A DNA stretch of 64,000 nucleotides from Candidatus Eiseniibacteriota bacterium (lineage in GTDB: Bacteria; Eisenbacteria; RBG-16-71-46), in the NCBI GenBank assembly GCA_963717505.1, contig OY970342.1, forward strand, positions 1,600,001 through 1,664,000, in the 5' to 3' direction. The notes below the pieces were generated by a model. That model ran no database searches and was not told where the DNA came from. It saw only the letters and a list, made by a program, of their open reading frames with translations. The translations under genes were made by a program, and so were the position numbers. Shown here one piece after another: positions 46,910-64,000 of the stretch. Positions within the stretch are counted from its first letter, which is position 1. The number at the start of each line of letters is the position of its first letter.

Positions 46910-48093
46910 AGCTCGCCTACTTCGATTGCTTCTCCGGCGTGAGCGGCGACATGTGCCTGGGGGCGCTGGTGGCGGCCGGGTATCCGGCCGAACGCCTCGC
47001 CGATCTGCCGCGCCGGCTCGGCCTCGAAGGGGTGCGCATCGAGATCGGCGTCGCGCGGCGTGGACCGTTTTCCGCGACTCGAGTCCAGGTCGAGGTCGCG
47101 GGTCGTCCGGCTCACCGCCACCTCAAGCATTTGCTCGCGATCATCGAGCAGGGTGACATCGCCCCGAGCGTTCGCGATCGATCGCTCGACGTGTTTCGCC
47201 GCCTCGCCGCTGCCGAAGCCGAAGTCCACGGCCAGACCATCGAAAAGGTGCACTTTCACGAAGTCGGCGGCGCCGATGCGCTGGTCGACATCGTCGGCAC
47301 GGTCGAGGCGCTCCACGAGCTGGGCGTCGAGCGCACCTACTGCTCGACCCTGAGGCTCGGCCGCGGTTCGGTGCCCTCGGAGCATGGCGTGATTCCGGTG
47401 CCGGCGCCGGCGACGACGTTGCTCTTGCGCGGGGCGCCGATCGAGATCCCGGCGATCGACGCGGAGCTGGTCACCCCGACCGGTGCGGCGCTGATGGCGT
47501 CCCTGGTTGCCGACTGGGGGTCGCCGCCGCCGTTTCGCCTCGAGGCCGCTGGGACTGGGGCGGGCGGCCGCGACCTCGAGGAGCAGGCGAACGTGCTTCG
47601 AGTCCTGATCGGTGAGGTCCGGACCGGTTCGCTCGGGCACCGCCGGGTTTCGGTTCTCGAGACGGCACTCGACGACGAAAGCCCGCAGATCCTGGCCGAC
47701 CTCGCCCCCCGGCTGCTCGCGGCCGGTGCCCTGGACGTCATGAGCGTCCCGGTACTCATGAAGAAAGGGCGACAGGGGACCTGGCTCGTCGTGCTCGCCG
47801 ATCCCGAGCGATCGCAGGCGCTGGCGACGATGTTGTTGAGCGAGACATCGACCTTGGGGGTTCGGGTTCGAGAGGATGAGCGGATCGAACTCGAGCGCCG
47901 CTCGGCCACCGTAGAGACCGAGTACGGGCCGATCGCTATGAAGGTGGCGATGCTGCCCGACGGCGGCACACGGGCAATCCCCGAGTTCGAGTCGGTGCGC
48001 GCCGCTTCGGAGCGGGCCTCGGTCCCGAGCCGAGAAATACGGGACGCCGCGCTCGCCGCCTGGAGGTCGAAGCGTGGAGCAGGAACGCCTTAG
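46906..48093 (+). CDS. larC: Nickel-pincer cofactor nickel insertase LarC
   Basis: FDCFSGVSGDM, HFHEVG..D...D, PVPAPAT, ELVTPTG, MKKGR, ETSTLG, PEFE. Confidence 0.93.
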   Translation: MKLAYFDCFSGVSGDMCLGALVAAGYPAERLADLPRRLGLEGVRIEIGVARRGPFSATRVQVEVAGRPAHRHLKHLLAIIEQGDIAPSVRDRSLDVFRRLAAAEAEVHGQTIEKVHFHEVGGADALVDIVGTVEALHELGVERTYCSTLRLGRGSVPSEHGVIPVPAPATTLLLRGAPIEIPAIDAELVTPTGAALMASLVADWGSPPPFRLEAAGTGAGGRDLEEQANVLRVLIGEVRTGSLGHRRVSVLETALDDESPQILADLAPRLLAAGALDVMSVPVLMKKGRQGTWLVVLADPERSQALATMLLSETSTLGVRVREDERIELERRSATVETEYGPIAMKVAMLPDGGTRAIPEFESVRAASERASVPSREIRDAALAAWRSKRGAGTP

Positions 48094-49441
48094 CCCTCGG
48101 CTGGTGGCGTCCGACATCTCGGTCGGTCCCCCCGGAGGGGAGCCCATCCTTCGCGGGGTAAACCTCGAGGTCGATGCCGGCGAGTGGCTGGGGATCACGG
48201 GCGCCAACGGCTCCGGGAAGACGACTCTGGCCCTGGCACTGGCGGGCCTGGCGCGGGTGCGGCAAGGCCGAGTGTGCGTCGCGGGCGAGCCCCTGCTCAC
48301 CGGCTCGGCTTCGAGGACGCGCGTCGCCGCGATCCTTCAGGAGCCCGGGTCCCAGCTTCTTTGCGATCGTGTGCTCGACGAAATCGCGCTCACTGCCATC
48401 AATCTCGGGATCGATCGTGGGGCTGCTCTGAAGGCCGCCCGCGAAATCGCAGAACGACTCGCGATTCGAGAGTTGGAACAGAACCCAGCGGCGCTATCGG
48501 CGGGTCGCCAGCAGGTCGTATTGCTGGCCGCCGCGCTGGCGGCTCGGCCGGCAGTTCTGATCGCGGACGAGGCCCTGGCACACGTGGACGCCCCCACCCG
48601 CTACCGGGTGCAGTCGGTTCTCAAGGAAGAGACCTCGAGGGGGCTGGCGGTGATCTGGGTCACTCAAAGTGCCGCCGAGCTGGCCAACGCCGACCGCGCC
48701 ATCGAAGTGACTCGGCATGGGATCATCGCCTGGCGGCAGGCTCAGGCATCCGACTCGCTCGAGCCGCGCACCGCATCGGCTTCGGTCCAGAGCGAGATCG
48801 GGCGTATTCGCGTCAAGTCCAACTCGAATCATGACAATCGGATACGGGTCGAGCACTCGATCGAGATCCCGATCCCGACAACCGGTCTGGTGGTGGTAAC
48901 CGGCGCCAACGGCGTCGGCAAGACCACACTGCTCGAGGCGATCGCGGGAGGGTTCGATCGACCTGAGGTCGAAGTCGAATGGCTTGGAAGGTCGGGCAGT
49001 AATTCCTTTTCCGGCTCCAAGTTCGGCCCGCTTCTGGTCGGGGAGAGACCGGAGACTCAGATCGTCCACGAGCAGGTCGCGGACGAAGTGGTTTACGCGG
49101 CCACAGCCAGAGGCAGGTCGCGTTCGGAGTCTCTGGCCCACGCCCGGGAACTCCTGAGAGCGCTTCCCTTTGGGACCGATCTGCTCGAGCGCCGGACGTG
49201 GTCCCTTTCCGTGGGAGAGAAAAGGGTCGTGTTGAACATCGGCGGGTTGATCGCACCCACAACTTTGCTTGCCATCGATGAACCAACCGCGGGCCTCGAC
49301 GCCGGTGGAAGTGAAGCCATGGCGAATCTGGTTCAGCAACGCGCAACGTCAGGGCCGGTTTTCGTTGCCACTCAGGACGTGGATCGGTTCAGAGGTCTGG
49401 CGGGTCATTATGTCGACCTGGGGGTCGCTTCAAGCCGCTGA
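48074..49441 (+). CDS. Tandem ECF-type ABC ATPase (divergent)
   Basis: Two Walker A motifs (GANGSGKT, GANGVGKT); QEP..Q; LSAG and LSVG signatures; DE and DEPT. Confidence 0.7.
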   Translation: MEQERLSPRLVASDISVGPPGGEPILRGVNLEVDAGEWLGITGANGSGKTTLALALAGLARVRQGRVCVAGEPLLTGSASRTRVAAILQEPGSQLLCDRVLDEIALTAINLGIDRGAALKAAREIAERLAIRELEQNPAALSAGRQQVVLLAAALAARPAVLIADEALAHVDAPTRYRVQSVLKEETSRGLAVIWVTQSAAELANADRAIEVTRHGIIAWRQAQASDSLEPRTASASVQSEIGRIRVKSNSNHDNRIRVEHSIEIPIPTTGLVVVTGANGVGKTTLLEAIAGGFDRPEVEVEWLGRSGSNSFSGSKFGPLLVGERPETQIVHEQVADEVVYAATARGRSRSESLAHARELLRALPFGTDLLERRTWSLSVGEKRVVLNIGGLIAPTTLLAIDEPTAGLDAGGSEAMANLVQQRATSGPVFVATQDVDRFRGLAGHYVDLGVASSR

Positions 49442-49497
49442 AATGGGGCGCATCACCCGGGGGAGGGGAATTCGGCAAGTTGCGGTCGAAAAACGGA

Positions 49498-49527
49498 TTG
49501 ACAGACCCATGTCAGACGGCCTAGCCT
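49498..49527 (+). promoter_or_regulatory. Near-consensus sigma70-type promoter of the giant secreted protein
   Basis: TTGACA-N18-TAGCCT; same boxes and spacing as the HU promoter. Confidence 0.6.
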
Positions 49528-49876
49528 TCTCGGTGCTGGGTAGCAGGTGGCTCCCCTCAAAACCCCTGGGAGCCCACCGTCGAGTTTCATCGGTCGTGGC
49601 TTCCGTTCTTGAAAGCTGGCAGCGGCTTTGAACGAGCGACGACGGAATCGCTGTCTGTGAAAGAGCAAATACCAATGCGCCGGGCCGCGTCCGACCTGCC
49701 AAGGGCGCGCGACCGGAAGCGGAAAGGGGGGATTCCGACTCTCGAGCCGGCTGCGCGGATGTTTCTGTCGTGAATTGCGACAGTCTCCGGTCGTCAGCCT
49801 ACTGCGAAACCTCGCTCGCAATCCGTACTGGAAGACTTCGCATTGCCCATGCATTGCGACGATGGAGGTACTGAAC

Positions 49877-52800
49877 ATGAGGAAATCGCTCGTGACGCTG
49901 TTGCTCTCTTTGGGAGTAGCCGCGTTTTCGGCGAATTTGGCACTGGCTGCGGTTAACGCCGGTGATACGGACCTGCAGGTCAAACTGCAGAACGCCCGTA
50001 TGGCCAGCGAACTGCAGTCTCGTGCTTCTGCGCTGTCGACGTCGGCTACCGACGTGGACACGAATTACGTCGGTTTTACCCCCGGCAAGTCGGCCTCGAA
50101 CTATTGGTCGATCTGGTCGGGCACGGACAAGTTCCACGATGGTGGTCCATACCACCGGCCGTATGCCCCGGGTAACGGCGGCACGTGGTCTTGGGAATCC
50201 GCAGTGAGTGGCGATTCGCTTCAGGGCTGGACCCCGGTTCGCAACCAGATGAGCGGAACCGGTGGTCTGACGATTCCTGACGCGGGCCGTCCGTGGCGCT
50301 GCTTGGACTACGGCAACGAAGCCAACGCGGTCATTCCGGGTGTCGGTCGCACGCATGGTGTTACGGGCGTGTGGCACGTCGACGCGGGCGACACGCAGGC
50401 GGTTCCGGCGTCGGTCAACGATACGCAGGACGGCCTGAATGGCGCCGGACTGGGTGTCGGTGGTGTCAACTGGACCCCGCTCGTCGGGACGCACTCGGCG
50501 TGGATGGGTCTTCGTCGTCACGGTGACGTCACGCACACCGACCAGACTGTGTTTGGCGGCACCGGCAACGCGTTCAACGAGGACGTGCTGGTCTACAACG
50601 CTCTGGCGGGCTCGGCTTCGCTGGGCGGCACGGACAAGCGCTTCCCTGGCTACGGCGATCAGATGGACCAGCTCCTGTATCGCGACGTGGACGTGACGGG
50701 CACGGGCACCCTGACGGTTGGGTTCTCGTACCGGACGAACATGTCGACGGGCGTGGTGACCAACAACATCACGCGCAGCGGTTGGTTCCAGTGGGATCCG
50801 CTGACGGTCGTAACCGGCGGCGCCAACCCCAACTTCATCGAGAGCACCGCCAACGCGACGCCGCCTGCAGACTCCTTCATGGTGTACGTAGGGGCTCCGG
50901 CGGAGAGCTCGGTCGTCCTGTCGGACGGCTCCTCGCATCCGATCTTCGACAAGAAGCGTCGTTGGGCGGGCGAGGTCATCCGCGGCGCCGAGGGTCTGTA
51001 CACTCAGATCCTGAGCCTGGGTGGCGCCAATGTGACCACCGCGTTCAGTGCGACGGTGAGTGCCACCGAGATCGATCGGATCACGGCATCGCCCACCGCG
51101 GGGGTGTCGAACAAGGTCCGCATCGTCTTCCGCGTCAAGACCAATCAGACGTTCAGCGATGAGAGCGTGAACAACACCGGTTCCTCGTCCGAAGGCGCGG
51201 GCGCTGTCATTGTCGACAACGTCACGGTCGCGAAGGACGGCGGGGCCGCATCGGTCATCGGCGGGTTCGAGGTTCATGGCGACATCAACAACTCGACGGG
51301 CTACGGTCCGTACGGGAACCTCGGTTCGTCCACTCATCCGTTGAACGTGTGGAAGTCCACCGGCAAGCCGACCAAGGTTTACACGCACATCCATCCGCTG
51401 GCGGGCCGCAGCGGCGGCTACATCCCGCTCGTCTACCAGGATCTGTGCGGTCAGCCTGGCAACCCGGCCCGTATCTGCGACATGGACGGGACGGTGGTTT
51501 CGACCGGTAATCATGACAACTTCGAGTCGTCGGGTGGCACGTTCGGCACTGCCGAGCAGGAGCCGTTCGACGGCATGGTCTCGCCGACCATCAGCCTGGT
51601 CGGTCAGGGCTTCACGACCCGCATCATCGGTGGCGTTTCGACGTCGGTGAACAACCAAGGTCTGTCCGCTGCAGATGCGGATGCGACCGAGGACTACTAC
51701 GTCGACTACGAGCTCTACACCGGCCGGTTCAATATCTTCACGACCGGCAGTGCCTGGCGCTTTGGCTTCTTCAGCTACCCGGCCGGCATCTCCGCGGCTC
51801 AGGGTACGCAGTACAAGCGCTGGAGCATGGTGCGGTATCCGGGCTTCATCTACTTCAACCCGGACAAGCAGTGCTTCCGGAACCTCGACGCGGCACTGGG
51901 CAACGGTCTGATCCGTACGACCAATGCCTCGGGCATTCCCGACTCGATCAAGATGTTCGTTGGTCCGCGTCAGGAGGCCTACCGCTTCGGAGTGCCGGTA
52001 TCCGAGAACTTCGACGGCTGCTACTGGGACAACGTCAGCCTCGCGATTGTGGACGGGGCGGGCGCGGATCCCGTGTCGGTCGACATTTGGCAGCTCTACC
52101 AGGACACGTTCCCGTCGAACACCAACGACGGTATCGTGGGCTTTACGGCTGCCTTCGACAGCACCGCCGGCCTCATGAAGAGCGGCATCAACATCGCCCC
52201 GGTCACCGGCAGCACGTCGCGGTTCGACGTGCCGGGTGACACGACGGTGGTCATCGCGGAAGGCGACAACGTCCGCGTGGACCTGGTGTTCCGCATCCTT
52301 CCGGGCCCGGGTAACTACACGAATCCTGGTGCAGCACCGGCCGCCCAGTTGCTGAAGCGAGTGCCCAACGCCGCGACCGCCGTCTCGGGTGGCGTGGTTG
52401 GCTCCGCGAACTTCTGGGAGAATTTCATGGGTGATCGTGGCGCCAAGGGCGCGGGGACGCATCCCTCGCCGCGTTGGAGCCCGCACGTGTGGAATGCGGC
52501 GCGCATGGATACCGCGGAAGTCAACATCTTCCAGCAGCAGAAGCGGATCAATGCGACGCCGGGCAACTCCGGTCTGTTCATGACCTCGTACCACGAAGAC
52601 GAACTCGTGGCTCCGGGAACCCGTCGTGCTCTGTCCGTCCCCCGCAATATCTGCTTCATCTCGGATACGGCGGCGGCGGTTCCGACCACGTCGGTGATCT
52701 GCGGCTCGGGTGCGGTTCCTGTCGGCGCGTCGTATCCGCCGGTGTGGGCCTATGCTCCGGGCACGGGTATCGCGACTGCCGGAACCGGCAATCCGCTGGC

Positions 52801-54379
52801 ATCCGCAACGCAGATTCAAAGCTGCCCGGGACCTGCCGGGTCGGGTCTGTGCCGTACCATCGAAGGCACCAAGATCCTGCCGGACGGCATGTTCACCCCC
52901 GGAACGCACATCGCTTACTTCTTCCGCCGGGAAGATCTGCCTCCGTCAGCGGTCTTCACGTTCAATTGCCCCGACACGAATGTCGTGTCGCCGCAGAACT
53001 CTGAAGGCTCGACGGACGGTCACCGCTGGCAGGAAGTTTCCGTCCTGCCGGACCGTTGGAAGGACGGCGACTACATTCACCCGGTGCTCGGAACTGTGGG
53101 CGGCGGTGAAGCGTGCGTGCTGTTTGTCGACAACAACGACCGCCGCGGCAACGAGCGCGTGTTCATTGGACTCGCCGACTCGCTCGGCATGAACAGCGCC
53201 GCGAAGCGCGGTGGCAGCAACGGTTGGAGCGCGGCTGGTGACGCTGACGTCAACGATCCGACGTACTTCGTCCGCCGTCATGTCGGCCAGGCCGGCACGA
53301 CGTTCGACAAGTACGACATCAAGGCGTCCGAGTCGCTGACCACCAACACCGGCAGCATCGGCAGCCGTGTTGCGTTCTCCAACCCGACGAACACCCAGAT
53401 CGACGGTCAGAAGTCCCTGCAGGGACCGTCGCCGACCATGCTGACGACCTTCTACAAGGTCCTCGTCACGCTGACCGGTGACCTGAACTCGAGCATCTGG
53501 GGTCCGTTCAACAACAAGAGCTCAAATGACGCCGGCATCATGACCAGCTTCGCGACCAGCGGCGATCCTACCGATCCCAATCGTGGCTTCTACACGACGG
53601 GTGACGGCTGGAACGAAGCGGCCACGGGGCCTGCGTATGCCTTCATCACCTCGATTCTCGGCGCCGATCTGATCAACGTGAGCTACCTGGCGAACTCGGG
53701 TAACACGGCGTTCAGCGCGGACATCCTCCCGACCGCGGCTCTGCCGTCAGCGACGGGCGACATTTACGGTCTCCGTAATGCTTGCACGTTCACGCTCGAC
53801 GTCCAGATCCCGGTGTTGGCCGAAGCCACCGAGTCCTCGTTCTACGAGGATCCGTTCGGCAACGGTCCGCATCCGTCGGGCATTCTGAAGACGCACACCG
53901 CGCTCAACCCGTGGATGGCGCTTTCGGACGGATGGGACATCGAGGTTCTGCGTGCGCGGGACGAGATTTCGTCTCGTGGACGTCTGACCTACTACTACAA
54001 GGCGTTCCAGGATGCGTTCGGGACGATCGCCGGCTGCAACATCGTCGGCGCGCCGATCTCGACCACCGACACGCCGAACAACGGTAGTGGGCGGCTCTAC
54101 AACTTCATGAGCCTCCGCAACAACCCGCTGCGTACGGGTTCTGCGACCTTCGCGATCGGTCTCGCCAAGAGCGATCGCGTCAAGATCCAGATCTTCGACG
54201 TCGCTGGGCGTCTGGTTCGTGACCTCGCCGACCGCAACTTCGTGGCGGGCGAGCACTCACTGACCTGGGACGGTGTCGACAATGCGGGCAAGCAGGTCGC
54301 TCGCGGCGTCTACTTCGCGCGGCTGGAGTACGCGGCCCAGAAGTTCACGAGCAAGGGTAAGCTCGTCGTCCTGAAGTAG
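49877..54379 (+). CDS. 1500-aa secreted protein with C-terminal FlgD-Ig/CTD-like domain (candidate major surface protein)
   Basis: GGAGG RBS; signal peptide MRKSLVTLLL..ALA; NNPL...IFDVAGRLVRDL...WDG....GKQVARGVYF...KLVVLK terminus. Confidence 0.85.
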   Translation: MRKSLVTLLLSLGVAAFSANLALAAVNAGDTDLQVKLQNARMASELQSRASALSTSATDVDTNYVGFTPGKSASNYWSIWSGTDKFHDGGPYHRPYAPGNGGTWSWESAVSGDSLQGWTPVRNQMSGTGGLTIPDAGRPWRCLDYGNEANAVIPGVGRTHGVTGVWHVDAGDTQAVPASVNDTQDGLNGAGLGVGGVNWTPLVGTHSAWMGLRRHGDVTHTDQTVFGGTGNAFNEDVLVYNALAGSASLGGTDKRFPGYGDQMDQLLYRDVDVTGTGTLTVGFSYRTNMSTGVVTNNITRSGWFQWDPLTVVTGGANPNFIESTANATPPADSFMVYVGAPAESSVVLSDGSSHPIFDKKRRWAGEVIRGAEGLYTQILSLGGANVTTAFSATVSATEIDRITASPTAGVSNKVRIVFRVKTNQTFSDESVNNTGSSSEGAGAVIVDNVTVAKDGGAASVIGGFEVHGDINNSTGYGPYGNLGSSTHPLNVWKSTGKPTKVYTHIHPLAGRSGGYIPLVYQDLCGQPGNPARICDMDGTVVSTGNHDNFESSGGTFGTAEQEPFDGMVSPTISLVGQGFTTRIIGGVSTSVNNQGLSAADADATEDYYVDYELYTGRFNIFTTGSAWRFGFFSYPAGISAAQGTQYKRWSMVRYPGFIYFNPDKQCFRNLDAALGNGLIRTTNASGIPDSIKMFVGPRQEAYRFGVPVSENFDGCYWDNVSLAIVDGAGADPVSVDIWQLYQDTFPSNTNDGIVGFTAAFDSTAGLMKSGINIAPVTGSTSRFDVPGDTTVVIAEGDNVRVDLVFRILPGPGNYTNPGAAPAAQLLKRVPNAATAVSGGVVGSANFWENFMGDRGAKGAGTHPSPRWSPHVWNAARMDTAEVNIFQQQKRINATPGNSGLFMTSYHEDELVAPGTRRALSVPRNICFISDTAAAVPTTSVICGSGAVPVGASYPPVWAYAPGTGIATAGTGNPLASATQIQSCPGPAGSGLCRTIEGTKILPDGMFTPGTHIAYFFRREDLPPSAVFTFNCPDTNVVSPQNSEGSTDGHRWQEVSVLPDRWKDGDYIHPVLGTVGGGEACVLFVDNNDRRGNERVFIGLADSLGMNSAAKRGGSNGWSAAGDADVNDPTYFVRRHVGQAGTTFDKYDIKASESLTTNTGSIGSRVAFSNPTNTQIDGQKSLQGPSPTMLTTFYKVLVTLTGDLNSSIWGPFNNKSSNDAGIMTSFATSGDPTDPNRGFYTTGDGWNEAATGPAYAFITSILGADLINVSYLANSGNTAFSADILPTAALPSATGDIYGLRNACTFTLDVQIPVLAEATESSFYEDPFGNGPHPSGILKTHTALNPWMALSDGWDIEVLRARDEISSRGRLTYYYKAFQDAFGTIAGCNIVGAPISTTDTPNNGSGRLYNFMSLRNNPLRTGSATFAIGLAKSDRVKIQIFDVAGRLVRDLADRNFVAGEHSLTWDGVDNAGKQVARGVYFARLEYAAQKFTSKGKLVVLK

Positions 54380-54401
54380 CGGAGTCTGAAGTCGATACAC
54401 C

Positions 54402-54443
54402 GCCGGGGGGCGGGGCGAAAGCTCCGCCCCCCGGTGCTTGTTT
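54402..54443 (+). terminator. Rho-independent terminator
   Basis: GCCGGGGGGCGGGGC-GAAA-GCTCCGCCCCCCGGT followed by GCTTGTTT. Confidence 0.8.
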
Positions 54444-54597
54444 GGCCTCCTGGCCCTCCCGTGGCCGGCCCCCCGGGCGGCCCGGCCCCAACGCCGGGTC
54501 AAGTTTTCAGCCCCGAGAGCCGATCGCCTGGGGAGAGGGACACCATCCTCCAGGCCCACCGGGTGGCTGCGGAGCGCCCCCGGACCGTTGCAGGCTC

Positions 54598-54626
54598 TTG
54601 ACGCCTCCGGGGTCGGCTGCTAGGTT
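54598..54626 (+). promoter_or_regulatory. Putative sigma70-type promoter
   Basis: TTGACG-N17-TAGGTT with TGC extension. Confidence 0.55.
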
Positions 54627-54675
54627 TCACGCACTTTCCCCTGACCAATTGACTGGGCGTGCTGGAGGGGCGTGA

Positions 54676-56712
54676 ATGCGCTTTCGTTCCGGTCTGCTTT
54701 TGCTTTTCCTGATCACGATGGTTGGTGTCGGGTGTCGAAAACCCCTCACCCCGAACGTCGACACCAATCAGGCTCCAGAAACCTGGATCACCCAGGCCCC
54801 CCAAGACACGATTACCTATCGCGACCCGGATTCGGGAGACCCGAGGGTTACTGAGATCGGGACGATTCCCGTTCGCTTCCACATGTATTGGGCGGGATCC
54901 GATCGGGATGGTGCGATCACGGGCTTCTACTGGGCCGTGGTCGAGACCCTCGATGTTCCGCCGCCCGGGCTGCCGTTGCCGCCGCTGCCGGGGCCCAAGC
55001 CGCGGGACTACCGGTACACCAGCAAGACCGACAGCGTGTTCGTGTTCAACGTGTCGCAGGAGCGGACCAGCCGGGCGCATGCGTTCTTCATCTACGCTGT
55101 CGACGACAAGGGCAAGCCCGACGCCACTCCGGCGCGGTTCATCTTCAGCGCGCTCGATCGCTTTCCGCCCGACATCTACATCTACGAGGCCTATGGCCAG
55201 GGGCCGATCTACCGGTGGGACAAGGTCCTGCGCCGCGTGACCACCAAGGACACGCTGATCTTCATCCGCGACTCACTGACCCTGGAGGGGCTCGGAGTGC
55301 CGCCCAAGGACACCGTGACCGCGGCCGCGAACCTGGTCTTCAGGTGGCGGACCGAGCTTTCCGCACCCGGTTCCAGCGTCACCGGGTTCCGGTACAAGCT
55401 GGATGAGTCGGTGTTCCAGGACCTGCCCCCGGAGTCCGCGCAGAAGGTCTATCCGATCGGGGCGGTCGCGGCGGGCACCAAAATCTTCTCGCTGCGGGCG
55501 CTCGACGAGGCGTCCGGCGCCAGCAACCGAAACCGGCGATTCCAGATGAACATGCGTCCCGACAGCTGGTTTGCCGGCCCGGATCCCAGTCGATTCCCCC
55601 TCATCGGGCGTGATCGCTACATCGATATTCCGAGCTGGTCCGATGCGGCGTTGCGCGCGACCCCCGAGTTGGCCGGGACCATGATGAGTTCCGACTCGCT
55701 GGTCCGGCTACCGGCCGAGCGCAGCACGCGCGAGACGTTTTACGAGATCTATCGAGATCGCCTCTACATCCGCTCCGAAGGCGATACCGTGCACATGAAC
55801 TCGTGGGTGCTGTTCCACGGGGGCGGTGTGGACCTCGATTCGCCCTACAGCGTCAAGGTCGGCGCGAACGACCCCGACCTGGCGAACGACACGGCCTTCG
55901 TCACCGAACCACCCCTGGTCGTGCGCCCGTCGGGGCCGAACGGATCCCCGATCGGGATGCAATTCGGCTATACCCTCGAGCAGACGCCGCTCGGGTCCCT
56001 GTCGGTCCAGCCGCGCGGCATCTCGATTCCGGTGTTCGATCCGGCCGACGTGCAGCGCGGCGAGAACCCCGCCGTCGGCGCCTACATTGCGGCCCGCACC
56101 GGTGGCAAGATGTACTTCACCGTCAACTCCGTCGACGGAAACAACGGCGCCGACCGTCGGGTGAGCACCGATCCGCGCAGCACCTACAACACGCGGCCGG
56201 AACTGCGAAATCTGATCGTGTTGTTCTACGTCAACAAGGATCCGTTCTTGTTGATCGACCAGCCGGGGTTCGTGCCGCGCCCCGACACCACGTTCTTCAC
56301 CCGCTTGAACCTGCGCTTCAACCTCCCGGCGGGCGACGTCGATCCCTACGACTTCGCCAATCCGCCGTCGCGGGTCGGCGGCCCCTCGAGCAGCACCGTG
56401 CTGCGCTGGACGCTGACCCTCAAGGGCAAGAGCACCTGGACCGGAGCGGATACCACGATCGCGCCGCCCGGTGGCTACCAGTTCAGCGCCCCGCAGATCA
56501 CGGTCACGGTTCCGAACGACATCCGTGGCCCCGAGGTGGAGGCGATCGTCGAGCTGTGCGACTGCAAAGATTGCGAGATTACCAACGGCGGACGTTGCAT
56601 CAGGAGATCGATCCCGTTCAACGTGCCGGCGATCCCGGCTCCGACGCGGGCCGCCGCAACTTCCAACGACCGACCGGGCCAGGATCCAGACAACCAGAGG
56701 AGGAGTCCATGA
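54676..56712 (+). CDS. Large lipoprotein with Ig/FN3-like modules
   Basis: Lipobox VGVGC; NQAPETWITQAP, WAGSDRDGAITGF, FFIYAVDDKG..DATPA. Confidence 0.8.
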   Translation: MRFRSGLLLLFLITMVGVGCRKPLTPNVDTNQAPETWITQAPQDTITYRDPDSGDPRVTEIGTIPVRFHMYWAGSDRDGAITGFYWAVVETLDVPPPGLPLPPLPGPKPRDYRYTSKTDSVFVFNVSQERTSRAHAFFIYAVDDKGKPDATPARFIFSALDRFPPDIYIYEAYGQGPIYRWDKVLRRVTTKDTLIFIRDSLTLEGLGVPPKDTVTAAANLVFRWRTELSAPGSSVTGFRYKLDESVFQDLPPESAQKVYPIGAVAAGTKIFSLRALDEASGASNRNRRFQMNMRPDSWFAGPDPSRFPLIGRDRYIDIPSWSDAALRATPELAGTMMSSDSLVRLPAERSTRETFYEIYRDRLYIRSEGDTVHMNSWVLFHGGGVDLDSPYSVKVGANDPDLANDTAFVTEPPLVVRPSGPNGSPIGMQFGYTLEQTPLGSLSVQPRGISIPVFDPADVQRGENPAVGAYIAARTGGKMYFTVNSVDGNNGADRRVSTDPRSTYNTRPELRNLIVLFYVNKDPFLLIDQPGFVPRPDTTFFTRLNLRFNLPAGDVDPYDFANPPSRVGGPSSSTVLRWTLTLKGKSTWTGADTTIAPPGGYQFSAPQITVTVPNDIRGPEVEAIVELCDCKDCEITNGGRCIRRSIPFNVPAIPAPTRAAATSNDRPGQDPDNQRRSP

Positions 56713-59172
56713 ACGGTCCAGGTTCTCTGTTCAGACTGCTCCGGATACCGGCGGCGGTGGCCGCGGTCGTCGCCCTGTTTGGCTGCGAATCGGCCATCAA
56801 AGGGGTTCTGACCAACCGGCTTCCGGAAGTGCGGCTGACCGCCGCACCCATCGATACCACCGGCAGGTACTACTACTCGATCACCTTGAACTGGGTGGGT
56901 TTCGACCCCGACGGGCGGGTCGAGCACTACATCTACACCGTGGATCCACACCTGCTGACGGCGGGGCAGGACACGGTCTGGCAGCAGACGACCGCAAACG
57001 AGTTGCGCATGTCGTTCGATTCGACCATCCCGTTGCGCGAACAACCCAGCAATCGAATGCTGGGCTCCGATTACCATACGTTCCTCATCCGTGCGGTGGA
57101 CAACCAGGGCGAGGTCGGCCCCTATTCGGCGCGCGCGTTCAACTCGTACACGGTGGCGCCCGAGGTTTTTCTGATCGCGCCGCCACCTTCGAGTTTTCAG
57201 TTCATGGTGACTCCGGCGGTGCGGATTTCGTGGCGTGGCGAGGACCCCGACGGCGTGTTCACCCAGAAGCCGGTCAAGTACAAGTACATCCTGCTGACCG
57301 CGTCTTCGCTCTTTCCCTGGGACGTGGCGTGGGCCAAACCGGATTCGTTGCGCCGATTCTATGAGAATCACCCGGACGGACCCTGGGCGGGCTGGGATTC
57401 GACCAGCGCCGAGACGACGATGGCGCGCTACACGAGTCTGACCCCCAACACCGATGCCGTGTTCTGCGTCATTGGCTTCGACGAAGCCGGGGCCTACAAC
57501 CCGCTGTTCTCGTTCCAGACCAACATGACGCATCTCAGGATCGGCTTCGCCGGGGCGAGCGGCCCCAAGATCGGGATGTTCAACGAGTCCTTCAACTACG
57601 AATACACGCTGGGAGGGATCTGCAACGACGCCGACCGATGCCAGGTCGTGCTCGAGGTTCCCGCCGGCCGCAGGGTGACCATCAACTGGTACGCCATACC
57701 CCCGTCCGGCTCGGACATCGAGAGCTACCGGTGGGGGCTCGACATCGAGGACCTGTTCGACTACGTGACCCCGCGCAATCCCGAGACGACCGACTTGAAA
57801 CACTGGAGCACGCCGAGCGCCAGCGTGACCCAGGCCACCGTCGGACCGTTCGCGGGCGGCGAGATCCACTTCTTCTACATCCTGGCCGAGGACAACAACA
57901 CGCTCAAGAGCATGGGAACCATTCGACTCGAGGTGGTGGCGCCGACCTTCAATCGGCCACTGCTGGTGATCGACGACACCCGACTCAAACCCACCGTCTA
58001 TCGGTCCTCGCGGGACACGTGCCCGATATCGCCCTCCGGGCCATGGCCGAACCGCGCCGAGATGGATTCGTTCATGTTCGCCCGCGGCGGCAAGTGGTGG
58101 AAGTGCCAGGGTCGGATGTCGAATCAGGGGTTGTTCGGCGCCTACGACTACGACACGTTCGGCACGCGGATCAACAAGGAAGTGCTGACCGTCAAGCTGT
58201 CGCTTCTGGCCAAGTACCGCCACGTCGTGTGGATGGTCGACGGCCCGGGTGCCGGCAACGACAAGCCCGGCACCGATCCGGTCGATCCGGGCGTCGCGCT
58301 GCGTTACATGGGCGGGCGGGGACGGGTGAACACGCTGGCGACCTACGTCCGTCAGGGTGGCAAGATCTGGCTGAACGGCGGTGGCGCGGCCTATGCGGTC
58401 ACCGATCCGTGGAACGATCGCAACAACGACGCCGGGAGCAAGAAGTACTCCTCGGTCGACGGCCGCAACGAGCTGGGTCCCGGCCGATTCATGTTCGACG
58501 TGGCCAAGTGGCAGTCTTCGTTCCAGATCAGCAAGCCGGTCGCGAGCATCCAGCGCGAGCTGGGGCGCTTCCGGGGACCGCCGCCGCTCAAGTACGGCGA
58601 GTTGCCGCTGGCGATGGAGGTCAAGGATGCGGCGAGCGACCCGGTCGCCATCGAGGCGCCCGATCGTTTCAACATCTACAGCAGTACCGTGGACATCGAG
58701 TACCTGAGGCAGGACGCGAACTTACATCATCGAGGACATCGACCCGGGCGTGATCGAGAATCTGCAGTCGACGCTCGACACGCTCTACCGGGTGCAGGCG
58801 TCCACGCTCAACAATCCGCCGGAACGCAGCAACCCTTATCTTCCCGGGATGCCCACGTACGTGATCATGACGCACTACCATGGACCGCCTCCCGACAACG
58901 TCTCGGTGACGCACACCGGTTTCCCGCTGTGGTGGCCGAAGCGCGTCCAGGGGCAGGCACTGGTCGACTACGTCCTGGGCACGCTCTGGGGTGGAGCGGC
59001 CGTCGGACTGGACAGGCGACCGTGGCCCGGGAACGCTCCGAGTACCACCATGCTGCGGGCGACGTCGGTGGCTCCCGGCGACCGTGCGACGAGCGTCGCA
59101 CGACCCGTCCCCGGTCGCGGGGCGGCGGTTGGCGTCAGCCGCCCGAGTTCGGCGCGGGTGCCGCGGGACTGA
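56709..59172 (+). pseudogene. Large lipoprotein related to 54676..56712, split by a +1 frameshift at 58722 (pseudogene or sequence error); about 820 aa if repaired
   Basis: GGAG RBS; lipobox LFGC; NRLPEVRLTAAP, WVGFDPDG; ...GCG AAC T TAC ATC ATC GAG... joins the 58750..59172 frame. Confidence 0.7.
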
Positions 59173-59173
59173 C

Positions 59174-60313
59174 ATGACCCGAGCGACTCGATTCCGCCGA
59201 ATCCTGATTCCGGCCCTGGCCCTCGCGGCCTGGGCCGGGATCCTGAGTGTGGCGTGGGCGCCCGAGGCGCGTGCCCAGATCGGACACACGCCCGGATGTG
59301 ACTTCAACTATGCCGCTCGGGGAGAGGTGCGGCCGAACTTCCCCGCGATTCCCATTTGCGCGTTCGTCGGCGCCTACCAGGACAGCTCATTGATCATTCC
59401 GCAGGCCTGCTCGGGCCAGTTCGCGGGGCCGTTGGCCGACAGCGTTCGCCTCGATTCTCGGACGATCACCGTGCGGTTCCTGCGCGATCGCCGTGCCGAG
59501 TCCCGAAAGGACTTTGGTGGGTATCGCATCTATCGAATGACCAACCAGCCGGATTCGAATCGGGCAGTGCTCCTGCGCCGCTTCTCGCGCCAGGACAACG
59601 ACAATCTCCTCTGGCACTTCTCGCGGGTCGACACCTCCAACGAGGTCACGAACCCGAACTTCCTCTGCAACGGCACGGTGATCAACGACAGCGTGGTCAC
59701 CTTCGTCGACCCCGATTCGAGCGGGTCGTTCGTCAAGGTGTGCCGGATCGTCGATCATCTCGATCGCTGCCTGTCACTCGGCGATTCGGTGTTCAAGCTG
59801 GTGACGCCGCCGGGCCCGCACGACGGCTTCCGGACCTGGTATTCGGTGACCTACGAGCTGAAGAACACGACTCTGGATGGTCCCTACGACGAAATGTTCG
59901 TGCCCGACACCCTGGACAACTTCGCCCGCTGCACCGCCCCGGTGCGGGACAGCTGCCCGAATCTGAACAGCAAGCTCAGCAACATGACCGCCGAGCCGGT
60001 CGAAGCGACCACCGGTCCCGAATCGAACCTCGAGCAGGTGGTCGTGGTCCCGAATCCATTCCGCGCGCGCGAAGCCTGGGATGGAACGTCGAACGAGGTG
60101 CACTTCACCAAGCTTCCGGCGCGCGCCACGATCAGGATCTACACGGTCGCCGGCGATCTGGTCGCCGAGCTCCTGCACGACGACTCGATTCGCGACTTCG
60201 AGCCCTGGAACCTCCGGAACCAGCAAGGGGAGGACGTGGCCTCCGGGATCTACATGTTCCGCGTCGAGTCCGACGCGTTCACGTTCCAGCATCGGTTCGT
60301 GGTCATCCGCTAG
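59174..60313 (+). CDS. Secreted protein with C-terminal VVPNP-type CTD-like domain
   Basis: Signal peptide ARA; DFGGYRIYR; VVVVPNPF...FTKLP..ATIRIYTVAGDLV...WNLRN..GEDVASGIY...FVVIR. Confidence 0.82.
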   Translation: MTRATRFRRILIPALALAAWAGILSVAWAPEARAQIGHTPGCDFNYAARGEVRPNFPAIPICAFVGAYQDSSLIIPQACSGQFAGPLADSVRLDSRTITVRFLRDRRAESRKDFGGYRIYRMTNQPDSNRAVLLRRFSRQDNDNLLWHFSRVDTSNEVTNPNFLCNGTVINDSVVTFVDPDSSGSFVKVCRIVDHLDRCLSLGDSVFKLVTPPGPHDGFRTWYSVTYELKNTTLDGPYDEMFVPDTLDNFARCTAPVRDSCPNLNSKLSNMTAEPVEATTGPESNLEQVVVVPNPFRAREAWDGTSNEVHFTKLPARATIRIYTVAGDLVAELLHDDSIRDFEPWNLRNQQGEDVASGIYMFRVESDAFTFQHRFVVIR

Positions 60314-60332
60314 GCGGGAGAGCAGGCCCACC

Positions 60333-61352
60333 ATGCGCCTGCATGTCGAGGTCAGGGTCCGACGCGGCGACATCGTCGAGTCGCGGCACCAGGTCGAGGT
60401 CGCTGCCGCGGACTCGGCGGGTGCCCCGATCGCGGGCACCGAGAATCCCGATCGGGTCACGACCTACCGCTCGTCCGCCAAGCCGTTCCAGTTGCTGCCC
60501 CTGGTCGAACGCGGACACGCCGAGCGTTGGGGATTCAGCGACCCGGAGTTGGCGGTGATGACGGCGTCGCACACCGGCAGCGCCGATCACCTTCGGCTGG
60601 TGCGTGGCATCCTCGATCGCCTCGGCCTCGGCGCCGCCGACCTGGCGTGCGGCTACCACGATCCCCTGGACCCCGAGGCACGCACCCGGCTGGCATCGCA
60701 TCCGGAAGAGGCGTCTCCGCTCTACAACAACTGTTCGGGCAAACACGCCGCGATGTTGTGCCTGGCCCTATCCGAGGGCTGGCCGGTGCGTGGCTACGAG
60801 CAACCCGAGCATCCGGTCCAGCAGCTCATGCGCCGAACCGTAGCCGAAGTCGCGGGGCTCTCCGCCGATGCCCTGAGTGTGGCGATCGACGGCTGCAACG
60901 TGCCGGTGTTCGCACTGCCGTTGTCGGCGATGGCTCGGTCCTATGCCCGGCTGGCTTCCGCTCACCCCGGATCGGATGCCCGCGAGGCTGCACTCGCGCG
61001 CATTCGAGGCGCTATGATCGCGCACCCCGAGGTGGTCGGCGGCGCCGGCCGATTCAGCACCGCGCTGATGCGCGCGACCTCGGGGATGGTGGTCGCCAAA
61101 GGTGGCGCCGAAGGCCTCGAGTGCGCCGGAGTGCCCGGGCGCGGACTCGGGCTCGCAATCAAGGTCCTGGATGGCGGCACTCGTGCGGTGGCGCCCGCGA
61201 TGGTGGCGGCTCTCGAGTGCCTCGGGCTCATCGACGCCGAGGCCCGCCGCGCCCTCGAGTCGGAAGCACGCCCGCCGATTCTCAATGCCGCAGGCCGCGT
61301 GGTCGGCAACCTCGAGGCCGTGGCCCGTGTGCCGGCGCACTCGACCCGCTGA
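60333..61352 (+). CDS. L-asparaginase II (Rhizobium AnsA-type)
   Basis: RGDIVESRH, RSSAKPFQ, ASHTG, NNCSGKH, DGC, AKGGAEG, KVLDG. Confidence 0.9.
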   Translation: MRLHVEVRVRRGDIVESRHQVEVAAADSAGAPIAGTENPDRVTTYRSSAKPFQLLPLVERGHAERWGFSDPELAVMTASHTGSADHLRLVRGILDRLGLGAADLACGYHDPLDPEARTRLASHPEEASPLYNNCSGKHAAMLCLALSEGWPVRGYEQPEHPVQQLMRRTVAEVAGLSADALSVAIDGCNVPVFALPLSAMARSYARLASAHPGSDAREAALARIRGAMIAHPEVVGGAGRFSTALMRATSGMVVAKGGAEGLECAGVPGRGLGLAIKVLDGGTRAVAPAMVAALECLGLIDAEARRALESEARPPILNAAGRVVGNLEAVARVPAHSTR

Positions 61353-63177
61353 CCTCGCGGCCTTCGGCCTGACCGCGGCGAGCGCGCTGCTGTTCGCGGC
61401 TCTCGCCGGGGCTCAGACGGCGTTGCCCGCGCGACTGGACCCGCGTCTCGAGAGTTTGCGGACCTCGTCCCAGGAGATTTCCGTTTGGGTCGTGTTCCGG
61501 GACAAGGGTCTGGCCGAGGGGGCCGAGCGCGCGCAGGCACTGGCTCGGGCCGAAGCGGCACTCACACCGCGAAATCTCGCGCGCCGACTCCGGGCGCGGG
61601 TGCAGCCGCTGGTCGACGATCGGGACCTGCCGGTCGCCGAGGCGAACCTGAACGTCTTGCGCGGATTCGGCCTCGAGCCGTATGCGGTCTCGCGTTGGCT
61701 GAACCGTGCTGCGGTGCGCATCTCCGGCCTGGGCCTCGATGCGCTGGTGCGTCTGCCCGGAGTCGCCGCAGTCACACCGGTCGCGCGCGTTCAGCGACAG
61801 ACGCCGCCCGTGGTCCGCGATGGGCACGGCGAGCTGTGGCCAACCTTCGGGCCCTCATCCGGACCCTCATTCGGATCCTTGGGGCCGGGGCTGGCGGCGC
61901 GCTCGAGCAGCGTCGATCACGGCCGGCTCGAGGCCGCGATCCGGCAGATCGGCGCGAGCGCACTTCACGACTCGGGCTACACCGGTGCCGGTGTCCTGGT
62001 CTGCGTGCTCGACGCCGGGTTCAACCGTCATGACACCCACGAGGCGCTGCGCGACCGCATTCCCGCGCCCGGCCACCGGCGCGACTTCGTCGAGGGCGAC
62101 AGCACGGTCACCGACACCACCACGGGGTTCCTGCTCAACCACGGCACCTGGGTGCTCGGGTGCCTCGCGGGGAACCGAGCCGGCGCCTACGTCGGTGCGG
62201 CACCCGGCGCGGATCTGGCTCTGGCGCGCACCGAGAACGAGTTCAGCGAAACACCCGCCGAGATGCTGTACTGGGCGCAGGGCGCCGAGTGGGCCGACAG
62301 CCTGGGAGCGGACCTCATCACTTCATCGCTCGGTTATTTCACCTTCGACGATCCGGCCCCCGACTACTCCTACGCCGACATGGACGGCCAAACCACCGAC
62401 GTCAGCCGCGCGGCCCAGATCGCGGCGAGCAAGGGAATCCTGCTGGTCAACTCGGTCGGCAACGAAGGCGCTTCGCTCTGGCACTACCTGATCGCGCCCG
62501 CCGACGTCGACGGGGACAGTCTGATTGCGGTCGGCTCCGTCGACGATTTGGGTGCGGTCGCGGCGTCCTCGTCGTTCGGGCCGTCGGCCGACGGCCGGAT
62601 CAAGCCCGATCTGGCGGCGCGAGGCGTGAACGTGCCCATTGTTTCGACGTCCGGGAACCCGACCGGTTATAGTTCCGCGTCCGGAACCTCGCTTGCGGCT
62701 CCATTGGTCGCCGGGCTCGCCGCCTGCCTGATGCAGGCGCGTCCGGGATGGAGTCCGCAGGAGCTGATCCGCGCGCTGCGCGAAACCGCCTCGCGGTCCA
62801 CGAATCCGGACATGCGGGTCGGTTTCGGCATTCCCAACGGGGCGCGGGCGGCGGGGCTTCCGGAACCGGAGTTCTCCGGAACCCTCGGGATTCGAACGGA
62901 AGGCGGCAACCCGTTCGCTCCCGAACGCGGCGATCTGCGGATTCGCTTCGGGATGTCCGCGGACGCCGCGGCCCGCTCGGTCCGGGTTCGCATCCACGAC
63001 AGCGCGGGTCGTGCGGTGCGCGCGCTCTGGTCGGGCGCGCTGATTCCAGGTTCAGTTGCGGAAGTCCCGTGGAACGGGCGGGACGACGACGGGCGCTCGC
63101 TGCCGCCGGGCGTCTATTGGGTGGCCGTGGCGGGTGACGGTGAAATCGCGAGCGCCCGCATCGTGCTGTTGAGGTGA
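61327..63177 (+). CDS. S8 subtilisin-like protease with propeptide and C-terminal FlgD-Ig/CTD-like domain
   Basis: VLDAG, HGT, NSVGNEG, GTSLAAP triad motifs; IHDSAGRAVR...WNGRDDDGRSLPPGVYW; start uncertain. Confidence 0.88.
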   Translation: MCRRTRPADLAAFGLTAASALLFAALAGAQTALPARLDPRLESLRTSSQEISVWVVFRDKGLAEGAERAQALARAEAALTPRNLARRLRARVQPLVDDRDLPVAEANLNVLRGFGLEPYAVSRWLNRAAVRISGLGLDALVRLPGVAAVTPVARVQRQTPPVVRDGHGELWPTFGPSSGPSFGSLGPGLAARSSSVDHGRLEAAIRQIGASALHDSGYTGAGVLVCVLDAGFNRHDTHEALRDRIPAPGHRRDFVEGDSTVTDTTTGFLLNHGTWVLGCLAGNRAGAYVGAAPGADLALARTENEFSETPAEMLYWAQGAEWADSLGADLITSSLGYFTFDDPAPDYSYADMDGQTTDVSRAAQIAASKGILLVNSVGNEGASLWHYLIAPADVDGDSLIAVGSVDDLGAVAASSSFGPSADGRIKPDLAARGVNVPIVSTSGNPTGYSSASGTSLAAPLVAGLAACLMQARPGWSPQELIRALRETASRSTNPDMRVGFGIPNGARAAGLPEPEFSGTLGIRTEGGNPFAPERGDLRIRFGMSADAAARSVRVRIHDSAGRAVRALWSGALIPGSVAEVPWNGRDDDGRSLPPGVYWVAVAGDGEIASARIVLLR

Positions 63178-63199
63178 CTCAGTGATGGAGTTTCATACG

Positions 63200-64000
63200 A
63201 TGAAAGTTCGGCGGTTCTCGGCGGTGGTTGCGATGCTGACCATCGCCCTCGCGACATTGCCCCCGGGGTCTCCCGCCTTCGCTGCCGATTCCCCGGCCAA
63301 GCCCAAGATCCAGAAGTCGCGACTCGGGAACGGGCTCGAAGTGCTGCTCGCGCCGGACCCCGCGGCCATGGGCGCTGACATCGCCCTGTGGTATCGCGCC
63401 GGCTCGGCCTACGAGCCGCCCGGTGCCTCCGGAATCTCGCACCTGCTCGAACGCATGACCTTCCGGGCTTCCACCGACTCGGCGCACGACTACCGGCGCC
63501 TCCTGCTCGCCGAGGGCGCGACCGCCAGCACCTCGACGACGCCGGACTTCACGAGCTTCTTCGCCACCGTTCCCACCGAGGCAGTGGCGCTCGCGATCAG
63601 GCTGACGGCCGAGCGCATGGCCGCGGGCCCATTCGACCAGGCGGCGTTCGACCGCGAGCGCGAGTTCGTTCAGCGCGAGCGAGACAATTTCGTGGAAACC
63701 AATCCCGTCGGCCGCTCGGTGGAGCGGTTGTTTGCGGCCGCCTATCCGGGCCACGGCTACGGCCGTCCGGTGCTGGGCGCCGAGTCCGACCTTGCCGCTG
63801 CCACGCTCGAGCAGGTTCAAGCCTATCGACGCGAACGCTACGTGCCCGAGAACGCGGTGCTCACGGTGACCGGACGCTTCGATCCCAAGGCCGCACTCGC
63901 CGCGATTCGCGAATCGTTCGGCGTGCTCGGGCGCGGCGCGCGCACGACGGCCGTCGTCGCCGCCGAGCCGGCTTCACCCGAGGCGCGCTCCGAGGGCACG
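63200..64000 (+). CDS. M16 (pitrilysin-like) peptidase homolog, 3'-partial, probably inactive
   Basis: Hand-translated (absent from the ORF track): GGAG RBS, signal peptide, LGNGLEV, WYRAGSAYE, SHLLERMTF, YVPENAVLTVTG. Confidence 0.85.
   Translation, partial: MKVRRFSAVVAMLTIALATLPPGSPAFAADSPAKPKIQKSRLGNGLEVLLAPDPAAMGADIALWYRAGSAYEPPGASGISHLLERMTFRASTDSAHDYRRLLLAEGATASTSTTPDFTSFFATVPTEAVALAIRLTAERMAAGPFDQAAFDREREFVQRERDNFVETNPVGRSVERLFAAAYPGHGYGRPVLGAESDLAAATLEQVQAYRRERYVPENAVLTVTGRFDPKAALAAIRESFGVLGRGARTTAVVAAEPASPEARSEGT

Follow-up and report, generated by a model that had tools for sequence, protein, structure and literature searches.

A 64,000-nucleotide (nt) window of contig OY970342.1 (positions 1,600,001 to 1,664,000 of assembly GCA_963717505.1) ends in seven plus-strand genes, labelled G1 to G7 from about 49.5 kb to the window end, whose products together probably serve the cell surface. 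The host lineage is Candidatus Eisenbacteria. We read G1 as a major surface protein exported by a type IX secretion system (T9SS) and strongly expressed under the control of an RNA leader, and G2, G3 and G4 as an outer-membrane scaffold that possibly holds it; we give this reading a probability of roughly 0.4. The export route and surface location of G1, its abundance, its contact with G2, G3 or G4 and any lattice are features that we infer. A first-pass annotation of the window had described a 1500-residue secreted protein with a FlgD-Ig-like end (G1), two lipoproteins with similar N-termini (G2, G3), a protein with a VVPNP-type C-terminal sorting domain (CTD; G4), an asparaginase (G5), a subtilase with a FlgD-like tail (G6) and an M16 homologue (G7), and had interpreted them as an S-layer- or sheath-like subunit with its anchoring and maturation factors. 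The genes, their strand and these features were all confirmed, with two corrections, namely a frameshift in G3 and the sequence HLLER in the zinc motif of G7. The overall interpretation is partly supported, and the view of the locus as an S-layer with its anchor stays plausible, in competition with two live alternatives, a protein-scavenging locus and plain neighbourhood without joint function.

Judged by what its flanks conserve, G1 (49877-54379) is a separate unit with a putative promoter, a covarying leader and a terminator-like hairpin. Orthologous loci were collected by searching one genome per species with a profile of G2, which gave 79 loci, nearly all titled Candidatus Eisenbacteria and a few titled 'uncultured bacterium' or oddly labelled; the denominators given for each gene count only the loci with sufficient flank. 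A promoter-like element, TTGACA-N16-18-CTAGCCT (given as N18 for the window copy, 49498-49527, plus strand), lies 360-380 nt before the G1 start. The pattern TTGAC[AT]-N15-19-[CT]TAG[CA][CA]T occurs upstream of G1 in 33 of 45 orthologous loci in addition to the window, a conserved A-tract precedes it in the alignment, and position 49498, where the locus had been taken to begin, is the start of its -35 box. A sigma-70 consensus scan of the region returned one site against 1.3 expected and missed the lineage-specific -10 box, and a sigma-54 site inside the leader (49617-49631) was dropped because its -12 part is not conserved in the alignments.

The element is followed by a structured 5' leader RNA of about 340 nt (49534-49876, plus strand), kept across species whose G1 proteins are just 36-59% identical. 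The consensus fold of 32 aligned leaders comprises 54 predicted pairs, and three measures of covariation support it: 1) 94.4% of cells are paired, against 86.6% in shuffled alignments and 36-52% in slid controls; 2) 172 cells are changed on both sides, against 57.3+/-6.8 when shuffled (none of 500 shuffles as high) and 31-40 in slid controls; and 3) the covariation score is 0.291, against 0.144 and 0.047-0.080, respectively. Helices 3, 5, 6 and 7 covary. In the predicted fold, helices 8 and 10 would mask the Shine-Dalgarno sequence GGAGG (49864-49868), with a CCUC at 49810-49813 as its pairing partner; both helices are invariant and carry no covariation signal. This predicted masking of the ribosome-binding site suggests control rather than stabilisation only. 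A covariance-model search of 49300-55000 gave no Rfam match at E<=1, and the leader thus adds a covariation-supported cis-regulatory RNA that has no Rfam family. At the other end of the unit, a GC-rich terminator-like hairpin (54401-54436, plus strand; 16 pairs, 14 of them G-C) follows G1. Of 42 orthologous loci, 40 have a hairpin of at least 9 base pairs no further than 150 nt from the G1 stop, compared with 9 of 303 control pieces from the interior of G1 genes; if at least five T are required in the next 12 nt, the counts are 20 of the 42 loci and 0 of the 303 controls.

Contigs from RNA libraries of three soil samples of one study cover the unit from 49580 or 49605 to 54394-54411, with no differing letters in the listed pieces. 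Low abundance of the large protein had been named as a result that would speak against the earlier interpretation; G1 is covered by RNA, by contigs that can give neither expression levels nor true transcript ends. The contigs of RNA runs X1, X3 and X8 left the flanks (46000-49580 and 54414-64000) unmatched, except for a 34-letter piece (48901-48934) with unmatched sequence on both sides. Neither silence of G2-G7 nor a higher expression of G1 is claimed from this missing cover: uncovered parts prove nothing, and the samples come from one study. Contigs from a DNA run (X5) lie on G2, G3 and G6.

The G1 product has a signal peptide, a beta-rich body, a MAM-like jelly roll, a domain resembling class I glutamine amidotransferases (GATase1-like) and a T9SS-type CTD. 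The Sec signal peptides of G1, G4 and G6 were read from the translations and are kept in orthologs. The CTD (54089-54376; residues ~1405-1500) holds the sole family match of the protein, to FlgD_ig (PF13860; 39.1 bits, cut-off 27, residues 1421-1485), which is present in 14 of 14 family members; TIGR04183 scores 22.9 bits, just under its cut-off of 23, and PF18962 scores 13.7 bits against a cut-off of 27. A Pfam scan of the family, member by member, brought up FlgD_ig, CHU_C and Por_Secre_tail and nothing further. In an AlphaFold model of residues 301-1500 (predicted local distance difference test, pLDDT, 78.8; predicted template-modelling score, pTM, 0.72), the tail superposes on the CTD of PorU (6za2_B: Z 11.3, root mean square deviation (rmsd) 3.1, 94 aligned, 26% identity), on PorZ (5m11_A, Z 8.9) and on the CTD of mirolase (8qb1_A, Z 8.5). 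The fold matches of G1 include a single S-layer entry, 7ptp_A (Z 8.6), and its alignment is confined to the CTD-type Ig domain.

The alpha/beta domain that precedes the tail (53015-54061; residues ~1047-1395) was matched with VIA-align to 3rht_A (Z 12.4, rmsd 3.3, 204 aligned), 2gk3_A (Z 12.3), the ThuA-like 4jqs_A (Z 11.9), the GH42 domain 5xb7_A (Z 11.3), the GIFT domain of IFT52 (5fms_A, Z 10.9) and OST48/Wbp1 (Z 10-10.6), and Foldseek agrees on the fold. Sequence searches against the PDB gave matches limited to FN3 and to the CTDs of FlgD and PorU. In a large protein collection, 295 proteins match the G1 body at E<=1e-5 among 7,997 candidates scored. Among the 120 relatives listed, 118 have PF13860 only, one lacks Pfam domains and one is an 1802-residue variant, and the names that they carry are 'hypothetical protein' or 'FlgD Ig-like domain'; the Atlas likewise returned unnamed FlgD_ig/Por_Secre_tail clusters as look-alikes. 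The 1802-residue variant (P0106) has extra FG-GAP/VCBS-type repeats before its FlgD_ig tail. We rejected as evidence the fact that 45 of the 120 lie on contigs of 4.33-5.28 kb, about the size of the G1 unit, since short contigs are the commonest and the leader or the hairpin could break assemblies.

If G1 is T9SS cargo, the genome should encode a matching machinery, and the first-pass annotation, which saw no such genes in the window, had proposed a search for SprA, PorU, PorV and GldK-N. The first three were found outside the window, whereas models of GldL, GldM and GldN had no match in any of 41 genomes. The single-contig assembly of the same genome (completeness 86.7%) has a SprA homolog (226 bits, cut-off 200), a PorU-like gene that is broken and scores 356 bits, below the cut-off of 420, and a PorV-like gene (44 bits) directly after it; in at least 48 further reading frames the C-terminal tail resembles the PorU CTD. 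We extended the search to a panel of 41 relatives (G000-G040), of which one (G026) is unpublished; it is included in the tallies of G1, G2, SprA, PorU, PorV and Gld and bears on no conclusion. SprA is over the cut-off in 35 of the 41 genomes; PorU is over it in 31 and reaches E<=1e-40 in 40; PorV-like genes are found at E<=1e-25 in 33 (92-127 bits, cut-off 250), directly after PorU in the places listed. GldK has one 25.6-bit match, in the genome under study, from a model that matched no control genome. The fold of the G1 tail and the SprA-, PorU- and PorV-like genes support the T9SS-related export proposed for the locus. To judge from these profile matches, Eisenbacteria may have the outer-membrane module of a T9SS without the known motor, or with a very divergent one. 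A review places T9SS in the Fibrobacteres-Chlorobi-Bacteroidetes superphylum, in the part of it that we consulted (PMC11205867). Our literature search found no published work linking Eisenbacteria to type IX secretion: among papers on secretion systems in the phylum none has T9SS in its title, and the passage of PMC11495043 at hand concerns nucleases. An outer-membrane half with no recognisable motor bears on how T9SSs are powered outside Bacteroidota.

The candidate partners of G1 start with two paralogous lipoproteins, G2 (54676-56712, plus strand; 678 residues) and G3 (56709-59172, plus strand; ~820 residues), whose end and start are joined by an ATGA overlap. The lipobox cysteines, Cys20 in G2 and Cys25 in G3, are invariant in 21 of 21 and 20 of 20 members. 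The similarity that had been noted between their N-termini holds at the profile level (hhalign probability 99.5%, E 5.6e-23, 218 columns), with plain BLASTP giving only E 0.012. The similar part runs from the signal peptide through two FN3-like domains, both of which contain a W-x-G-x-D-x-D-G motif. G2 continues into a remainder of ~400 residues with a Cys-rich motif near the C-terminus, whereas G3 has a third FN3-like domain and a GATase1-like domain (~57940-59040). The profile scan of the window gave no family match for either protein; member by member, Pfam detects fn3 in 11 of 20 G3 and 2 of 21 G2 proteins. The Atlas gave Ig-like leads only, all <0.9, for residues 290-678 of G2, which has homologs in 38 of the 41 relatives. 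In G2 orthologs the Cys-rich motif (window 56560-56640) has the consensus IELCDCxxCExxxGxGRC, possibly the mark of a disulfide knot or of a metal site.

An AlphaFold-type model of an intact G3 ortholog (L063, 57% identical; pLDDT 87.1, pTM 0.75) has FN3-like sandwiches at residues ~36-150, 150-280 and 280-410, followed by an alpha/beta domain at 412-776. This domain matches 5xb7_A (Z 13.4), 2gk3_A (Z 12.4), 4jqs_A (Z 12.2) and 3rht_A (Z 11.9) and, more weakly, 5fms_A (Z 10.9) and OST48/Wbp1 (Z 9.7-10.3). According to the models, G1 and G3 both carry a class-I-glutamine-amidotransferase-like (ThuA/GIFT-like) fold: they have the fold and the top PDB matches in common, and the superpositions align ~200-217 residues, although neither family has a Pfam GATase match. 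Each has a conserved Gly-rich stretch, GDG in G1 and GGG in G3, read from the consensus only. The shared domain is the sole concrete hint, at the level of predicted structure, of a link. A complex prediction for the two alpha/beta domains of one relative scored 0.00, which is no answer and evidence neither way. G4 (59174-60313, plus strand; 379 residues) completes the set, with a signal peptide, the motif FGGYRIYR, typical of FN3-like domains and conserved in orthologs, and a 'VVPNP...' T9SS-type tail that scores 42.9 bits against the C-terminus of the PorZ model and 20.1 against TIGR04183, below the cut-off of 23.

The genes keep company across the phylum. In 20 loci compared, the order G1-G2-G3-G4 is kept wherever the flanks reach, including in class-level relatives at 23-35% identity. 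G3 follows G2 in 62 of 62 loci, G4 follows G3 in 56 of 56, and G1 precedes G2 in 41 of 49. The other eight comprise L121, L125 and six distant loci (L134-L139); in these six, a CTD protein of 1100-1200 residues, 21-25% identical to G1, occupies the G1 position. G2, G3 and G4 are tightly coupled: the gap between G2 and G3 is at most 10 nt in 44 of 58 loci, 24 of them with a 4-nt overlap, and that between G3 and G4 is at most 10 nt in 39 of 56. G1-family matches at E<=1e-20 occur in 34 of the 41 relatives, frequently in several copies per genome, and even in multi-copy genomes one copy keeps the position before G2.

These observations can be arranged into the following mechanism. G1 would be expressed from its own strong promoter as a monocistronic mRNA of ~4.9 kb, the leader of which could mask the ribosome-binding site. 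The protein would cross the inner membrane via Sec and the outer membrane via a SprA-type translocon, with the C-terminal beta-sandwich as the tag, and a PorU-like sortase and a PorV-like barrel would probably process it and attach it to the surface. G2-G3-G4 would be a translationally coupled operon, which may extend into G5-G7, and its products, a paralogous pair of lipoproteins with FN3-like stalks plus a small FN3-like protein that carries a CTD, may together make up a scaffold at the outer membrane by which G1 is held or organised. The class-I-glutamine-amidotransferase-like fold serves in assembly rather than in catalysis in several relatives, and the head domain of G3, with the same ThuA/GIFT-like fold as in G1, could have such a role here.

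A number of arguments weigh against this picture. First, it presents as one assembly locus what includes a separate transcription unit: G1 and G2 are never closer than 164 nt, with a median distance of 313 (42 loci). Second, synteny alone does not prove a joint function, because unrelated housekeeping genes upstream are about as syntenic: 28 of 30 loci have a homolog of LarC and/or of the ABC ATPase no more than 3.6 kb upstream of G1, Dus too is retained there in many loci, and the whole chromosomal region is stable in Eisenbacteria. The co-location in relatives that the earlier annotation had wished to see thus holds for the order G1-G4 but is not specific to it. Third, the search detected no homolog of G1 in L121 and L125, where the match to the ABC ATPase stops ~150-180 nt short of G2. 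Fourth, paralogs live apart from the putative partners. None of the three full-length G1 paralogs of the genome (76-78% identical) adjoins G2-G4 homologs, their neighbours being unrelated: one (C1:1887414-1891910; L024) is followed by HlyD and MacB-type genes, and the others (C1:1909974-1914371 and C1:1914656-1919125; L025) form a tandem pair immediately preceded by genes for a sigma54-type response regulator and a histidine kinase. The single G3 paralog also sits beside unrelated genes. Fifth, the G1 and G3 profiles have no significant sequence relation (hhalign probability 2.8%). Sixth, D1144, S1153 and Y1193 are invariant polar residues in the alpha/beta domain of G1, which leaves catalysis or ligand binding by G1 possible. 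Finally, the GldL, GldM and GldN models gave 0 matches in the 41 genomes, and as they also matched no control genome, not found does not mean absent. Upstream of the G1 paralogs, a similar TTGAC...CCTAGC(C/A)T element precedes a different, shorter leader.

The invariant polar residues of G1 and the genes that follow G4 fit an alternative that we consider less likely but live, in which the locus scavenges proteins or peptides: G2-G7 would be one operon devoted to breaking down proteins outside the cell and using the amino acids, with an S8 protease that is secreted, two M16 proteins in the periplasm and an asparaginase in the cytoplasm, G2-G4 would bind substrates at the surface, and G1 would be an abundant capture protein or an unrecognised hydrolase. 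Bacteroidota utilisation loci have Ig-domain lipoproteins, which is the model for G2, G3 and G4 in this scheme. The genes in question are G5 (60333-61352, plus strand), a homolog of L-asparaginase II (PF06089, Asparaginase_II, 388 bits) with no signal peptide evident in its sequence; G6 (~61327-63177, plus strand; start codon uncertain), an S8 subtilase (Peptidase_S8, 137.6 bits) with the D, H and S motifs in its translation and a T9SS-type tail (FlgD_ig, 39.8 bits) that itself fits a secreted protease; and G7 (63182 to beyond 64000, plus strand), a Peptidase_M16 protein (74.9 bits) with a signal peptide that runs off the window. The HxxEH zinc motif of G7 reads HLLER, with the second His lost, and G7 may therefore pair, as the inactive member, with the product of the next gene, also M16 (L029:423-2627). 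In the window G2-G7 follow one another closely on the same strand (gaps of -4 to ~20 nt), and G6 and G7 are kept in 41 of 45 and 38 of 44 loci; G5 is kept in 40 of 54 but missing in 14, and G5-G7 are all missing in class-level relatives. The G3 paralog (C1:195498-197651, minus strand, 45% identical; L026), which lies among other CTD-tagged genes, adjoins the gene of an M14 carboxypeptidase that contains an InhA-like MAM domain and ends in a FlgD_ig tail, and G1 has its own resemblance to a MAM jelly roll at residues ~498-726 (7uab_A, Z 8.8, 132 aligned), with an InhA-like_MAM lead of 0.79 in the Atlas. The invariant polar residues of G1 would also suit an enzyme, but the MAM and Atlas matches are weak leads, no enzyme, peptidase or hydrolase family matches G1, G2, G3 or G4 in profile searches of Pfam, NCBIfam and the PDB, and no transporter or TonB-dependent receptor was found in the gene run.

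The stability of the region lends itself to a second alternative, to which we give the same weight as to the first, in which there is no joint function: G1 would act by itself at the surface or as a secreted protein, G2-G4 would make up an envelope operon that has nothing to do with it and G5-G7 would be ordinary neighbours, their order kept by low rearrangement. The conservation of Dus, LarC and the ABC ATPase alongside, the promoter, leader and terminator that G1 has to itself, the dispersed G1 and G3 paralogs and the loci L121 and L125, where G1 was not detected at its position, are all as this would predict. It accounts less well for the domain types that the products have in common (GATase1-like in G1 and G3, FN3-like in G2, G3 and G4, CTD in G1, G4 and G6) and for the one G1-family copy that holds its place in multi-copy genomes. 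We consider unlikely the boldest form of the surface reading, an Eisenbacteria surface layer of an undescribed kind, in which the G1 subunit would be exported by a reduced T9SS (SprA, PorU and PorV without a GldLM-type motor) and held by the FN3-stalk lipoproteins via paired ThuA/GIFT-like domains, at a level set by a new class of leader RNA that gates the ribosome-binding site.

The preferred reading, a T9SS-exported G1 with a G2-G4 scaffold, can be set against several known systems. TfsA and TfsB, the S-layer proteins of Tannerella forsythia, reportedly carry a CTD and are said to be encoded by adjacent genes. We know of no lipoprotein pair that accompanies the Tannerella S-layer system. That S-layer is reported to depend on T9SS (PMC4175972). 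G1 resembles TfsA/TfsB in being a large secreted surface-type protein with a probable type IX route; unlike them, it belongs to another phylum and comes without a detected GldL/M/N-type motor, and our searches gave no sequence or fold match to them. If the surface-layer reading is true, Eisenbacteria would join Tannerella as the second lineage known to have a layer that depends on T9SS, and theirs would differ in architecture.

The closest parallel to the presumed route is the type A CTD cargo of Bacteroidota, with its PorU sortase and PorV shuttle, as described in excerpts of PMC4804311, PMC10994853 and PMC5445135: signal peptide and C-terminal beta-sandwich tag are in common, the tail of G1 can be superposed on the PorU and PorZ CTDs, and SprA-, PorU- and PorV-like genes are present. 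In contrast, the Eisenbacteria tails are best recognised as FlgD_ig (PF13860), at or below the cut-offs of TIGR04183 and PF18962, the PorV-like proteins score below the cut-off, and no match to GldL, GldM or GldN was found. The type B CTD proteins of Bacteroidota, which have PorP/SprF-like partners in the outer membrane, as far as the portion of PMC9143113 available describes them, offer the idea of a secreted surface protein encoded beside its would-be holders; here the partners are lipoproteins on FN3-like stalks rather than PorP-like barrels, the CTD is type-A-like, and G1 is a separate unit. The alpha/beta fold of G1 and G3 is that of ThuA-like proteins (4jqs, 1t0b), 3rht, 2gk3 and the GIFT domain of IFT52 (5fms), at Z 10-13, and is also found in OST48/Wbp1 (6s7o_G, 6c26_B) and in domain B of GH42 (5xb7). 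Unlike these relatives, G1 and G3 lack Pfam/NCBIfam matches to their families (identity 7-15%), and the domain is predicted to be extracytoplasmic, fused to a T9SS tag in G1 or to a lipoprotein stalk in G3. Long structured 5' leaders occur on surface-protein genes with high expression, among them ompA and the genes of S-layers. With its putative strong promoter, leader of several hundred nt, monocistronic unit and strong terminator, G1 shares their layout, but its leader has a sequence and a fold that are new to Rfam and a conserved CCUC predicted to mask the ribosome-binding site.

Eisenbacteria are a widespread phylum of soils and sediments without a cultured member, and all four core proteins of the locus fall in families named merely 'hypothetical' or 'FlgD Ig-like domain'. 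The locus puts a name to what is probably one of the main surface proteins of the phylum and to concrete candidate partners. In the metaproteome literature on Eisenbacteria, the passages of 10.1101/2022.03.11.484050 that we saw are silent on the proteins of G1-G7.

The reading frame of G3 shifts by one base within 58708-58722, a stretch for which no covering read was found. This is probably an assembly (indel) error, to judge by sequence comparison, since the G3 paralog of the same genome and all orthologs read straight across this point, and the SprA, PorU and PorV homologs of the same assembly are also split over several frames (C1:2397432-2401563 and C1:2957688-2962381; L027, L028); relatives have them in single frames, with SprA of ~1,800-2,450 residues and PorU mostly of ~1,400-1,600 residues. 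The genes upstream of 49441 are of a housekeeping kind (a duplicated ABC ATPase, LarC, Dus, an S41 protease and others); those for an AIR-carboxylase-like protein (LarB-type), LarC (nickel insertion) and the duplicated ABC ATPase span 45914-49441 and keep their position in most relatives. The window is GC-rich (G+C 0.64-0.70), and positions 48000-60000 have a G+C of 0.635-0.656 compared with 0.67-0.70 in most of it; as the locus is vertically conserved across the phylum, this lower value is not a sign of recent transfer.

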